A DNA stretch of 63,470 nucleotides, filler included, from Globobulimina sp. (GCA_003354225.1; 54 parts of 54 records of this genome joined end to end with filler, not necessarily neighbours in it), one strand, 5' to 3'. Shown: positions 22,383 through 62,294, counted from the first letter of the whole stretch. The notes: a model not told the origin generated them from the letters alone. Program-made: numbers and translations.

Positions 22383-22595
22383 ATACCGATACTCGGTTGC
22401 GCCAATTGCTAAAAATATATAATCATTTCCGAGTTGAATCACTTTATCATCATTTTGGTGCCAAACGTCGATATTCTCTTTCTCAATATATTCAGCTACT
22501 CTCTCTTCAGGTTCTAATAAATCAACTTTAATGTATAATGTGTTACATTCACACTTTAACATTCTGTTAGTCAAGTGACCGTTAATTGCGTCCAT
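22383..22595 (-). CDS. Antisense 173-aa ORF of unit B (continues 23340->23032)
   Basis: MDAINGHL...ATEYRY|IPHYHY...CRE*; the first ~70 aa look protein-like. Confidence 0.45.
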
Positions 22596-22838
22596 AATAT
22601 TCGGAGTTTTATTTGTTTACATATAAAACGCAGTGTTATGATTCTGAATAATTAAAAGTGTTTTTATTTTACTTACCTTACGTATCTTTAGTTCACTTAA
22701 ACACTTTACTTTCCTCTTTTAATCCTTCCATTCTACTTTCTTTAGCACGCTGCAGCAGTAAAACTGCAAACATTAAAACGCAATCCAAAGAACCAAACCA
22801 TTGATTGTGTCACCCCCTGGTAATTAACATATAGTAAG

Positions 22839-23459
22839 ATGGCATTGGCATTATCAATTCGTGAATTTGATGCATTGGTGGGCAAAGTCGAAAAGGATCC
22901 AGCATTATTCTTCTTGACCCCATCGTTGATGAAGCAGCCATTAAAAAATCCATCAGCAGTACCGGTTAAATATTATAAGGAGGATTATAAGGCGATTTTG
23001 ACGTATATTAAGAGCAATCGATTGGTATATATTATTCCCGGCAGATCCTCATCGTATCAAACAATTTTAGACCGATTAAAATGGAAATATGAGGCGGCCA
23101 AACCCAGACCAACCGAGAATCCGCGACCAACGAAAGAATTGCTCGCAGCATTTTGCCAACAAGTGTTAGTCTCCAAAGTGAGCCAGTTCCGTAAATCCAA
23201 GCAGTGGACCATTTATAAACGTGAGATATCACAATATGATGTTGATAAATCTCCCTTCTTTGAATCTGAACAAACCAAATCCAAAAACACAAATAAAAAC
23301 ACTTCCGATAATGATTCGTCGGATAATGATAATGCGGTATATACCGATACTCGGTTGCGCCAATTGCTAAAAATATATAATCATTTCCGAGTTGAATCAC
23401 TTTATCATCATTTTGGTGCCAAACGTCGATATTCTCTTTCTCAATATATTCAGCTACTC
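22839..23459 (+). CDS. 216-aa basic protein of unit B (continues 22502-22531 across the junction), unknown function
   Basis: ATG at 22839; reads ...SQYIQLL|SLQVLINQL* through the junction. Confidence 0.7.
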
Positions 23460-28267: not shown

Positions 28268-29000
28268 AGCATATTGGGAGCATATTGGGATCATATTAAG
28301 CATATTGGGATCATATTGGGATCATATTGGGAGCATATTGGGATCATATTGGGATCATATTGAGAGCATATTGAGAGCATATTGGGAGCATATTGGGATC
28401 ATATTGTGACATATTGGGAGCATATTGAGAGCATATTGTGAGCATATTGAGAGCATATTGGGAGCATATTGGGAGCATATTGGGATGATATTAAGCATAT
28501 TGGGATCATATTAAGCATATTGGGATCATATTAAGCATATTGGGACATATTGGGATCATATTGGGAGCATATTGAGACATATTGGGAGCATATTAAGCAT
28601 ATTGGGACATATTGGGATCATATTGTGAGCATATTAAGCATATTGGGAGCATATTGGAATCATATTAAGCATATTGGGATCATATTAAACATATTGGGAT
28701 CATATTGGGAGCATATTGGGAGCATATTAAGCATATTGAGAGCATATTGTGACATATTGTGAGCATATTGGGATGATATTAAGCAATTGGGATCATATTA
28801 AGCATATTGTGACATATTGTGAGCATATTGAGAGCATATTGGGAGCATATTGAAATCATATTGGGACATATTGGGATCATATTAAGCATATTGGGAGCAT
28901 ATTAAGCATATTGGGATCATATTAAGCATATTAGGAGCATATTGGGAGCATATTAAGCATATTATGATCATATTAAGCATATTGGGATCATATTAAGCAT
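28268..29000 (+). repeat. Minisatellite with CATATT core (11-bp GAGCATATTGG/GATCATATTGG and 9-bp AAGCATATT units)
   Basis: Continuous array of about 730 bp. Confidence 0.97.
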
Positions 29001-29081: not shown

Positions 29082-29344
29082 AAAATCACACCCAACTAAA
29101 TCACACCCAACTGAACCAGGCAAATCGCCGACCAAATCACACCCAAATGAACTCTGCAAATCGCCGGCCAAATCACACCTAAATGAACCACGCAAATCGC
29201 CGACCAAATCACACCCAACTGAACCACGCAAATCTCCCAAATAAATCACACCCAACTGAACCACGCAAATCTCCCAAATAAATCACACCCAACTGAACCA
29301 CGCAAATCTCCCAAATAAATCACACCCAACTGACCAAATCACAC
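29082..29344 (+). repeat. ~36-bp tandem repeat AAATCACACCCAACTGAACCACGCAAATCKCC...
   Basis: About 7 degenerate copies. Confidence 0.92.
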
Positions 29345-48276: not shown

Positions 48277-49274
48277 TTGATTTCGATGGATTCCAATAGC
48301 GGGATACCACGGATATTTAAGATACTATCCAAATCCCCATTGGTTTCATTTTTATTATAGATGATATCATTATAATGTTCTTTTGTGTTGGTTTGACGTA
48401 GGACTGCTGCATTCGAGTAATGTTTCCGGTGGTAATAATGGTTCAATCCAACGTGCTCGGTCAGTATTTGGATCATTATAGCCGCCTCATTTCTGGTTAA
48501 CAATTCGAACAATTTATTTAATTTGTTATTCCACATTGGATTATTTACATACAACAGACAGGTTTTATTCTTACGCTGCTTCCATTTAATCAATTTATCA
48601 TCCCCGATTAATTTATACATTAAGGCTAATGCCATTGGATATTCAGTCTCATGGGCCAGGGATTGGTCTAATTCCAGATCCATTACAGCATCATGGACGA
48701 GTTTGTCAATTTGAATATTACCGAAGAAGTCTTCGTGGGCCTTTATTTTAAAGTACGTTAATCGCTTATTGGGCCATTTGTTCTGCAACGTTGCCATGCC
48801 ACGAAATATTTGATCGATTATTATTTTGGTATCTTGGTATTTCGGGTAGGCAGAGAATTTGAGATATTTCAGTGCCGTTAAATTGTCCACGAAAATTGCA
48901 AAATGATTATAATGATTCCGATCCAGATTGATTGTTAATAAATGTTCAATTATTAATACCAACCCTTTTAGTTCGCGTTTGGCCGAATTCGTTAGATATG
49001 TAATGGTTTTAACTTCATGGTTTATTTTCGGTGGTCGAATATATGGAGAATACCATCCGAATGCGCCAACCCCGGGGTTCGGATGGCAGGAGCCATCAGT
49101 ATAAAATTGAAACATTTCAGTGAAATTCATTGGGTCTGATTCGGCTGTGACTACAGTATAATTCGTGGGCATTTTTGGTATGTTATATGTTGGCAGTGCT
49201 GTAATTGGTTTGCATCGCGGATTATTCGGTAATTTGTATTTAGAACGTGCCAAAAATTTATCAAAAGTCAACAT
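48277..49274 (-). mobile_element. RNase H domain of a non-LTR retrotransposon
   Basis: FYTDGSCHPNPG.G, EL, FVDN, KIKAH...GNIQIDKL, then IQILTEHVGLN. Confidence 0.85.
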
Positions 49275-49459
49275 TGCTCGATATAATGGGGAGATGTATA
49301 GGTAATATTTGGTCCGTTTAATGAATTTATTATTATTTACTTTGGTAATATGGNNNNNNNNNNNNNNNNNNNNNNNNNNNNNNNNNNNNNNNNNNNNTTA
49401 ATTAATTAANNNNNNNNNNNNNNNNNNNNNNNNNNNNNNNNNNNNNNNNNNNNGAAAGT

Positions 49460-50631: not shown

Positions 50632-51707
50632 ATAGCCTCAGTAGAAACAACAAAAGAAAAGAAGCAAGAATGGGAAGAGAAGTTTTATAATCTATTAGAA
50701 GATTTCAAGGGTGTGACTGGTGGTAGAATTTTAGCTAATGCTGGTACAGATTTTGAAGGTACAACATTAATTAACTGTTTTGTATTTGATAATGACATTT
50801 ATGATATTGATTCTATAGATGGAATCTTAGAAATTTTAAAAGGACAGGCTAAAACATTAAAGAGTGAAGGTGGATGGGGAATTAATGCGTCATTTATCAG
50901 ACCTAGAGGATCACATATTCACGGTATAGGTGTCGAAAGTCCTGGTGCTATCAAATTCATGGAAATTTTCGATAAAGCATCCGATGTAATCACATCAGGA
51001 TCTGGTAAGAAATCGTCTAACCCTAATGCTAAGAAGAAGATACGAAAGGGTGCTATGATGATGGTAATGGACGCACATCACCCTGATATCATTGAATTTA
51101 TCACAGCAAAACAAAGTCAAGGAAGATTAACTAAATTTAATATGTCAGTTAATTGTTCTAATGAGTTTATGGATAAAGTTATCTATGCTTTAGATAACCC
51201 AGACGAAGAAATGATGTGGGATTTAATATTCCCAGATACCACATTTTATAAGTATAAAGACGAATGGCGCGGAGATATTAGAGATTGGAAATCTCATGGG
51301 TATCCTACCATTACACATAATACAATTCCTATTTTGAAACTATGGGAAATGATCATGCAATCTACTTATAATAGAGCAGAACCTGGAGTATTGTTTTTAG
51401 ATAGAGCAAATGAGACACATTGCTGGAACTATGGTGGTGTAAGTGCTTATATATCAACAGTTAATCCATGCGGCGAACAAACTTTACCAAATGCAGGTTC
51501 ATGTGATTTAGGGTCTATGAATTTAACACAATATTATAATGGTGATATATTTGAATTTAATAGGTTCGAATCTGATGTAAAAGTCATGGTCAGATTACTC
51601 GATAATGTAAATTCTTGTACTTCATTACCATTGCCTGTATATGAGGAAACTGTAGAAAACATTAGACGAATTGGTTTAGGTGTTATGGGTTGGGGATCTT
51701 TATTGTA
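50632..51707 (+). CDS. nrdJ: Adenosylcobalamin-dependent (class II) ribonucleotide reductase fragment, bacterial or phage
   Basis: GGRILANAG..NCFV, RKGAMM, HPDIIEFITAK, FNMSV, AEPGVLFLD, NPCGEQ..GSCDLGSMNL, RRIGLGVMG. Confidence 0.88.
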
Positions 51708-59942: not shown

Positions 59943-60046
59943 NNNNNNNNNNNNNNNNNNNNNNNNNNNNNNNNNNNNNNNNNNNNTTAATTAATTAANN
60001 NNNNNNNNNNNNNNNNNNNNNNNNNNNNNNNNNNNNNNNNNNACCC

Positions 60047-60814
60047 TTGAACAGAGAAATCGATACCGATAAAAAATGGAAACTCGGAAAAAAACATTTG
60101 AACGAAACAGATGAAACGGATATATACATTAAAGAAGAAAAAGAAGCAAAATACTTGGGAATAACCCTTAGTAACAATAACAAAGATATCACGAACCAAC
60201 ACAAATCTAAGTTAGGGGAACAAACAAAAAAAGAAGCATACAGGTGTTTCAAACCAGCTCTGGCCACTGCTAGATCCATACTGTATGGAGCGAAAATATG
60301 GAAAACATACGTAATACCAAAAATTTTACATGGAATAGCATCCATAATATGGACTAAAGACACTTTTACAAAAATTGAAATCCAAGAAAGAGAATTTATA
60401 CGTACTATCACCCGATTACCAAAATTCACAAATAATATGGTTTTATATGGAGAAACTGGAATAATTCCAATGTCCATGGAAGCTGAAAAACGAACTATAA
60501 ACTATTTAGCCCATATACTGAAACTAAATGATAATAATATTGTAAAAATTGCTTTACTTGAACAAATACAAATTTATAACAATAACTCGAACCCAAAAAT
60601 ATGGCTGACTCATGCCATAAAATGCTGTAATAAATACAATATAGACCCATATGATATACCAAAATCAGATAAAGTAAAAGAAATTATAAATCACCATTGG
60701 AACCAAAAATATAATAACATTCTTGAAAATGCAGGAACTCTGGTGCATTATCGAGAAAAAACAAATCCAAAAATTAATTATAAATTGAATCTTCAAACTG
60801 GAGGTGACTTCTAG
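60047..60814 (+). mobile_element. Non-LTR retrotransposon reverse transcriptase C-terminal/thumb region
   Basis: KYLGI, IWKTYVIPKILHG..IW, LYGETG. Confidence 0.85.
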
Positions 60815-61439: not shown

Positions 61440-62294
61440 TTATTTATCCAAATCAAATGGATTAATATATTTTATGTTTTGTTCTTTTTTCTGGATTTCC
61501 TTCAATTCCCTTCTACTTTTCCAATATTTTCGAATCTTATTTTTCCAAAGAAACGATCCTTTGACAGTGTCAATGTCATAGATATTGTCATTTTTATCAT
61601 TTTGTCGCGTTGCATTGTTGATTCGTTCACATTGCATTTCCAATAACTCATCAAAATATTGCATAAAATATGTACGTATATTTTGATTGGTTTTCTTTAG
61701 TACTCTTTGCATCACACCCGTTATATACAAAAAATTATTTGCCATATTATAGTTGAACGATGACGACAACGTCACCATAGATTGTGCTCTTTTTTGTTTC
61801 TTCCGACCGCCTTTTAGTTTTCCTAAGTATGTGTTTCTTTGATATTTTATTTTTGCCAAAATCTCGGAATGAAACAACAATTTTTCTAACATGGAAGGTG
61901 TCGTAGCATTTGGCCGAGCAATCATCGATCCAATTTGATATAACGTGAGTCCATGGTTTACAGATTTCGACAGCACCAAATATGATATTCGCAGATTCTG
62001 AAACACCAACAATGATAATTTCAATTCGTTTCTCAATTTATTTATATCCCGTTCAATGTCAATATTGTTAACATATTCGACGGTGAATGGATCAAATGGT
62101 TGTTTTGACTGTTCCCAATTTAACCAAATCCACGAATCACTTGTAATATTCAGTTTTTCTGGGAATGTCAATCCATGATCGATCGGAATTAATTCATAAT
62201 TATAATACTTTTTATCTTCAATATAATACTCGTCCTTTGCCAGCAATAAATTACCTCCATTTCTGTCACAATTTAAAATGCGAATGTCTAAAAC
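61440..62294 (-). CDS. Type II (gamma-like) phosphatidylinositol 4-kinase, C-terminal part
   Basis: LDIRILNCDRNGGNLL, LIPIDHGLTFP, WLNWEQSKQPF, GLTLYQIG. Confidence 0.9.
   Translation of the reverse strand, partial: VLDIRILNCDRNGGNLLLAKDEYYIEDKKYYNYELIPIDHGLTFPEKLNITSDSWIWLNWEQSKQPFDPFTVEYVNNIDIERDINKLRNELKLSLLVFQNLRISYLVLSKSVNHGLTLYQIGSMIARPNATTPSMLEKLLFHSEILAKIKYQRNTYLGKLKGGRKKQKRAQSMVTLSSSFNYNMANNFLYITGVMQRVLKKTNQNIRTYFMQYFDELLEMQCERINNATRQNDKNDNIYDIDTVKGSFLWKNKIRKYWKSRRELKEIQKKEQNIKYINPFDLDK

Follow-up and report, generated by a model that had tools for sequence, protein, structure and literature searches.

A self-closing contig with a 958-bp period and a putatively composite 216-codon open reading frame

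The contig at positions 22383-23459 (referred to here as contig B) holds two divergently oriented predicted coding segments, P on the plus strand and M on the minus strand, with a spacer between their start codons that carries a short dispersed repeat, and it ends in the same 119 bp with which it begins (Table 1). Contig B lies in a window of 63,470 nucleotides, by which we mean the whole stretch of DNA that was analysed. This window is made up of 54 separate contigs of 1078, 1077 or 1076 bp, arranged in descending size and set apart by N linkers around TTAATTAATTAA; because the contigs are joined in this way, features that span a linker and any regularity of ~1177 bp are artefacts of the concatenation. 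Neither end-to-end overlaps nor common 31-mers were found among the 54 contigs, and contig B thus has no graph neighbour within the window.

Table 1. Coordinates of the features of contig B, counted from the first letter of the window
Feature	Coordinates	Strand	Remarks
958-bp unit, one turn of the closed assembly path	22383..23340		Repeat spacing 958; contig 1077 = 958 + 119
First 119-bp overlap copy	22383..22501		100% identical to 23341-23459
Read-through tail of the 216-codon ORF	22383..22531	+	49 codons and TAA 22529-22531; antisense to M
Predicted coding segment M	22383..22595	-	ATG 22595, 71 codons up to the joint; no stop of its own
Spacer between the divergent starts of M and P	22596..22838		243 bp, from ATG 22595 (-) to ATG 22839 (+)
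Dispersed short repeat, core 22599-22643 (~45 bp)	22599..22669		4 nt upstream of the ATG of M
Predicted gene P	22839..23340	+	ATG and 167 codons; cut by the joint, no stop of its own
Read-through of M into the antisense of P	23035..23340	-	102 codons, giving a 173-codon minus-strand ORF
12-bp perfect palindrome CGGTAT/ATACCG	23335..23346		Centred exactly on 23340/23341
Second 119-bp overlap copy, contig end	23341..23459		100% identical to 22383-22501

An exact 119-bp repeat at the contig ends had been noticed in an earlier, sequence-only reading of this DNA, and a repeat search recovered it as a direct repeat of 119 nt with 100% identity and a spacing of 958. Terminal direct repeats are present in two of the 54 contigs, namely contig B and the contig at 15315-16392 (referred to here as circle A), and in both they are exactly 119 bp long and 100% identical. 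When a path in a de Bruijn assembler returns to its starting node, it leaves a fixed and exact overlap of k size, and we take 119 bp to be k-1 for a k of 120, or k itself for a k of 119. A maximum k of 120 has been used in print, according to the accessible part of PMC6783311. We conclude that the 119-bp terminal repeat is a k-size overlap left by the assembler and not a biological repeat of that length; being fixed and exact in both self-closing contigs, it shows only that the graph closes with a period of 958 bp.

Circle A has a unit of 959 bp, the 119-bp overlap, and a 265-codon minus-strand ORF across its closure, with codon scores that are positive over most of the ORF (0.03-0.31). It has no palindrome at its closure and no Pfam or PHROGs family. 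Comparison of contig B with the other 53 contigs, including circle A, by blastn and tblastx gave nothing significant, and, as the two circles have no sequence in common, there is no common region between them. The two had been described as unrelated in sequence and alike in architecture, and only the former description stands. Given the length sorting of the contigs and the fixed 119-bp overlap, any self-closing contig in this window has a unit of 958 or 959 bp, so the “same architecture” is an effect of sampling. This cautions that k-size terminal overlaps in concatenated, length-sorted drafts mimic equal-sized “gene-sized circles”.

Starting at ATG 22839, the plus frame meets no stop before the contig ends at 23459, which amounts to 207 codons. 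When the unit is read as a circle, the frame continues across the junction to TAA 22529-22531, giving 216 codons plus the stop and a basic product, as had been reported before; the product has a pI of 9.7, with 35 Lys and Arg versus 21 Asp and Glu residues. When the unit was simulated 1000 times with a first-order Markov model, no ORF reached 216 codons (maximum 160, mean 63). The coding character of the individual segments was scored with a codon model whose training set was 17 long ORFs on other window contigs and which compares coding with same-register antisense sequence and ignores stops; in a leave-one-out trial with 49-codon windows, it returned +0.207 per codon (SD 0.17) for coding and -0.205 (SD 0.20) for antisense sequence. 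The plus frame of P (22839-23339) scored +0.244, which is coding-like. The plus frame of the tail (referred to here as S1; 22383-22528) scored -0.403, and only 1.6% of true coding windows score so low; the absence of stops over the 49 codons of the tail is nothing unusual (p = 0.34 by synonymous resampling of M). On the opposite strand, the minus frame of M (22383-22595) scored +0.363, a value that only 1.8% of true antisense windows reach, and the read-through of M over P (23035-23340, minus strand) scored -0.191, which is antisense-like. That these 102 codons stay open has p = 0.014 by synonymous resampling of P and is less expected. The maximum-likelihood change point of the 216-codon ORF falls at codon 171-172, and the joint lies within codon 168.

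These codon statistics indicate that the 216-codon ORF is a composite, which would consist of 167 real codons of P and 49 codons antisense to M. The single 216-aa ORF proposed earlier would accordingly be retained as a real gene over codons 1-167 and given up over its last 49 codons, and the case serves as a caution that an ORF crossing a closure can be a fusion of two genes. P itself we take to be a real gene, because the ORF is longer than in all 1000 simulations and because P has a relative (see below). The codon usage of both P and M fits the model built from the eukaryotic contigs of the window. As M has no known relative, the evidence for its being a gene is its codon statistics; it has no Pfam family, none of 12 candidates scored in a protein search, and the atlas gave no usable match.

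The sole known relative of P is P0020, which was found by an exhaustive HMMER search of 1.84 billion representatives with 65% identity over residues 1-63 and an E value of 1e-19, so that the claim of an orphan ORF no longer holds. P0020 is 76 aa long, has NCBI as its source, and lies on a 658-bp contig. It begins with the same MAL start as P and differs from it mostly by conservative changes, with divergence beyond residue 63. We conclude that P and P0020 constitute a lineage-restricted gene family. A scan of genome_contigs for the DNA of P0020 produced 229 pattern matches, none of which was confirmed. For the 207-aa ORF, none of the pattern matches in viral_contigs (2) or metagenome_contigs (158) was confirmed, none of 108 candidates scored in a word-indexed search of 5.8 billion proteins, the best score in the protein atlas (0.79) was within noise, and no relative was found in phages (tblastn) or plasmids (blastn). 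A resemblance to a SAP/HEH helix pair had been suggested for the product, and it found no counterpart either in Pfam, which returned no SAP/HeH at E<=1, or among PDB sequences, where the ORF had no match at E<=10. The Pfam matches of the three ORFs tested were, at E<=1, limited to Tudor and P5-ATPase, both of them sub-threshold, and PHROGs has no family for contig B; no Rep or capsid family was thus recognisable in either collection, in agreement with what had been stated from the sequence. The single-sequence AlphaFold2 model of the ORF had a pLDDT of 36.8 and was unusable.

The 54 contigs of the window range in GC from ~26 to 44%, and the standard genetic code gives many ORFs of 330-359 codons with Pfam domains. 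Under the ciliate code (table 6), the whole plus frame of contig B is open and the parts that are added look non-coding; we rejected this code. Summed over the window, the ORFs comprise 14661 residues under table 6 versus 11987 under the standard code. The standard code fits, because many long ORFs are open under it and the gain under table 6 comes from stretches that look non-coding. The contig adjoining contig B within the window holds the AARP2CN family, and other window contigs hold further eukaryotic families in Pfam, namely RCC1 repeats, CDP-OH_P_transf (CDP-alcohol phosphatidyltransferase), Melibiase (alpha-galactosidase), and RNase H, the last as a domain within a 358-codon frame at 48279-49352. 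A PI3/PI4-kinase fragment at 61443-62294 on the minus strand has as its best match a protein of transcriptome MMETSP0190 that is 59% identical, and MMETSP0190 is given as Rosalina sp., a foraminifer, in the accessible part of PMC6783311. On the basis of this one protein, we regard the DNA as probably that of a foraminifer-like, AT-rich protist.

A frame at 60044-60811 looks by eye like a retroelement fragment and has no Pfam match; retroelements are probably present in the genome. A 358-codon open frame in 50632-51705 contains a ribonucleotide reductase barrel domain (Pfam, E 1.8e-59), which, judged by eye, is presumably of the cobalamin-dependent class; this sequence in the bin could be from the host, a bacterium, or a virus. 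Tandem repeats are abundant in the window. One contig consists mostly of satellite sequence: an 11-nt unit, which was scored as a 20-nt unit as well, recurs ~70 times at 28268-28994, and 29091-29333 contain an array with a period of 37/72 nt.

Four independent features coincide at 23340/23341, namely the contig start, the switch of coding strand, the centre of a palindrome, and a branch of the k=31 graph. The palindrome is the only one in the unit with arms of at least 6 bp, and such centres occupy 41 of 57522 positions window-wide; the inverted identity at the joint ends after 6 bp. By eye, GTATAT within the palindrome is a possible 5' splice donor on both strands, which would make P and M first exons, and we did not adopt this view. 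In run X1, a Logan k=31 unitig matches 23140-23370 with 0 differences and a mean word depth of 4.2 and spans the joint. A second unitig matches 22383-22628 with 0 differences at a depth of 8.5 and ends at 22383, the contig start, and the two unitigs overlap by exactly 30 bases, which is k-1. One more record extends across the start of the stretch, where the first bin has a depth of 14.1. The branch at 22383 and the depths of 8.5 versus 4.2 indicate that 22383-22628 has a second, different predecessor. These depths fit two copies of 22383-22628 per copy of 23140-23340, in a ratio of 2:1 that derives from few reads (~4 and ~8) and, by a rough estimate, lies ~1.6 SD from 1:1. No alternative continuation beyond 23340 was seen, the X1 unitig being unbranched there.

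X1 covers 0.40 of the sampled words and leaves 22671-23139 without cover, which is no proof of absence, and the other two runs of the same sample, X2 and X3, contain next to none of the sampled words and contributed no contigs matching contig B, which likewise does not prove absence. Because X1 may be the window's own source data, its independence extends to the assembler only. Within this limit, the head-to-tail joint between P and S1 is real in the reads. The junction of the gene-sized circle proposed by the sequence-only reading is therefore upheld, as is a closed path of 958 bp; a free circle is not, in view of the branch at 22383 and the second predecessor. Contig B resembles the self-closing “DTR contigs” of de Bruijn assemblies in having an exact overlap of fixed length, of the same size in two unrelated contigs, and an ORF that is seemingly “split” by the position of the contig cut. 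In contrast to these, the cut in contig B is not arbitrary. Its coincidence with a branch, a palindrome, and a strand switch indicates that the closure is a real rearrangement joint and not the neutral opening of a homogeneous circle.

The spacer, when folded as single-stranded DNA, has a mild z-score of -2.1. Searches for Rfam families and tRNAs found none at gathering score in the window, and a SCARNA7 match on contig B is at chance level (14 bits versus a gathering score of 65). In X1, many short contigs pile up on the dispersed repeat at 22599-22669 with 90-100% identity; its summed word depth is 254 versus 4-8 on the flanks, and the sequences off both sides are unrelated. None of the other 53 window contigs contains the repeat, and its 21-nt core has 0 exact matches in viral_contigs and 0 in metagenome_contigs. 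As to its nature, the element might be part of a transposon or a motif with a regulatory role.

We consider that the unit is a 958-bp chromosomal segment with a local head-to-tail duplication, or in a short tandem array, and with a different left flank, and we put the probability of this at roughly 0.5; the form of the unit would be chromosomal and not episomal. Under this reading, the nuclear genome of a foraminifer-like, AT-rich eukaryote would contain a 958-bp piece joined head to tail at 23340/23341. The piece would contain a divergent gene pair, with M running leftwards from 22595 and P running rightwards from 22839 on either side of the 243-bp spacer, and the joint would cut both P and M ahead of their stop codons, so that we infer the two to be truncated copies of longer chromosomal genes. 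With both genes cut before their stops, each frame would continue into the antisense of the other gene, and this mutual read-through would yield the 216-codon ORF and its mirror image, the 173-codon ORF on the opposite strand. The closed loop in the de Bruijn graph would arise from the head-to-tail joint.

Contig B resembles the tandem duplications and arrays of repeat-rich protist genomes in its head-to-tail joint, its period of ~1 kb, its different entry flank, and its depth ratio of ~2:1. It differs from them in that the unit contains the 5' portions of a divergent gene pair and not a non-coding satellite or a whole gene, and in that no exit branch was observed. In the foraminifer Astrammina rara, tandem repeats of >100 bp occur in 6.7% of eukaryotic contigs, according to the accessible part of PMC3079666. 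As to the flanks of the repeated unit, an entry is seen (the branch at 22383, the record over the start, and the depths of 8.5 versus 4.2) and an exit is not. A linear array must also leave the loop, and the contig would have been split where it did so; that no exit branch was seen counts against a duplication. Further, the palindrome at the joint is not predicted by replication slippage or microhomology joining; the joint has no direct microhomology next to it, since position 22383 must be preceded by different bases in the two predecessors. It is also somewhat unexpected that an accidental fusion should leave M open over 102 codons antisense to P (p = 0.014), which likewise counts against a duplication.

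The closed path, for which neither the contig nor the X1 unitig across 23340 shows an exit branch, would also suit an eccDNA-type circle, in which a 958-bp chromosomal segment without replication functions was excised or copied and ligated, and the second predecessor of 22383 would then represent the parental locus. We regard such a circle as unlikely. That both genes are cut mid-frame is what a random chromosomal fragment would show, and the self-closure of two of 54 same-length contigs would be as if small circles had been enriched, for example by rolling-circle amplification. However, the parental continuation of P past 23340 should produce a branch as well and none is seen, the depth is modest (4-8) and not visibly that of a high-copy molecule, and contigs by themselves look alike for a circle and a tandem repeat. 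The joints of eccDNA are usually reported to have direct microhomology, unlike that of contig B with its 6+6 palindrome. In other respects, contig B is like the eccDNA and microDNA described in the accessible part of PMC11606643, being a small closed unit and a random-looking chromosomal piece that cuts genes and lacks replication genes. The same part of this source describes eccDNA of 0.15-100 kb as widespread in eukaryotes and, separately, endoreplication and “Zerfall” in foraminifera; a link between eccDNA and foraminifera was not found in it, which is no proof of absence. Somewhat less probable than such a circle, in our view, is a chimera of sample amplification or library preparation, by which the joint 23340/23341 would be absent from the DNA of the organism and the loop would be a by-product. 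The tail-to-tail fusion of two coding segments, neither of which has a stop codon or 3' region, would be in keeping with this, as would the low depth and the occurrence of the sequence in only one of three runs of the sample. The position of the joint on a short palindrome points the same way, short complementary stretches being typical of template switching. Against a chimera, the joint lies within a 231-bp unitig with a mean word depth of 4.2 that is unbranched at 23340, and a one-off event should leave the true continuation of P in the majority, with the joint as a minor branch; no such branching is present. Amplification chimeras are mostly inverted, and the rejoining in contig B is on the same strand and backwards by 958 bp. 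The window contig has the same joint, which is not independent evidence insofar as X1 may be its source data.

That contig B is a gene-sized circle replicating autonomously, be it a plasmid, a minicircle, a satellite, or one component of a multipartite ssDNA virus, with the 216-aa ORF as its product, appears highly improbable to us. A circle of ~1 kb with a single ORF is in the size class of nanovirus components, and contig B has ~1 kb, one long ORF, and ~300 nt of non-coding sequence, in which the short element that is present in high copy with unrelated flanks could be a common region among circles. The long ORFs that overlap on both strands, with the read-through of the minus frame at p = 0.014, would suit a compact genome, and the window has another contig, circle A, that closes on itself and carries an ORF of 265 codons. 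Yet neither Pfam at E<=1 nor PHROGs returned a Rep, a capsid, or any other family of viruses or plasmids, no relatives were found in viral contigs, phages, or plasmids, and circles A and B do not have a common region; further, the ORF is antisense-like over its last 49 codons, the codon usage agrees with that of the eukaryotic contigs, and the graph branches at the joint. The origin nonanucleotide patterns scanned for had 0 matches on both strands of the circularised unit, and the conserved block of kinetoplast minicircles is absent from it. Thus, contig B is like the components and satellites of nanoviruses and CRESS-DNA viruses in size class and in having one long ORF with a non-coding region, and unlike them in the lack of a Rep or capsid, of the scanned nonanucleotides, and of a common region, and in its eukaryote-like codon usage and composite ORF; it differs from kinetoplast and dinoflagellate-plastid minicircles in that no conserved core common to contig B and the other 53 contigs, circle A included, was found. 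We likewise see very little probability in a small mobile or excised element with 6-bp inverted termini (ATACCG...CGGTAT), either as a circle junction or as a head-to-tail dimer beside an integrated copy. The joint abuts two such termini, which form the only 12-bp palindrome of the unit, as the abutted ends of a transposon do in circular intermediates, and a different left flank exists. However, the inverted identity extends over only 6 bp, Pfam detected no transposase or recombinase family in the unit, there is neither a matching right-flank branch nor a second copy in the other 53 contigs, and the coding content resembles two ordinary gene starts. A broader proposal, namely that the unit is excised or amplified small DNA with 6-bp inverted termini and one of many ~1-kb gene-bearing, self-closing foraminiferal molecules, is put forward on the ground that two of 54 same-length contigs self-close, and we think it very unlikely. 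Were the unit such excised DNA, these molecules might be made during the endoreplication and processing of the foraminiferal genome, and the element at 22599-22669 could be a common cis signal.

Overall, the biology that is left is modest though real, and consists of a head-to-tail rearrangement joint in the poorly known, repeat-rich genome of a protist, the gene family of P and P0020, and a multi-copy element. Should such closed units prove to be true circles, and common ones, they would be relevant to the way in which foraminifera manage their highly endoreplicated genomes.
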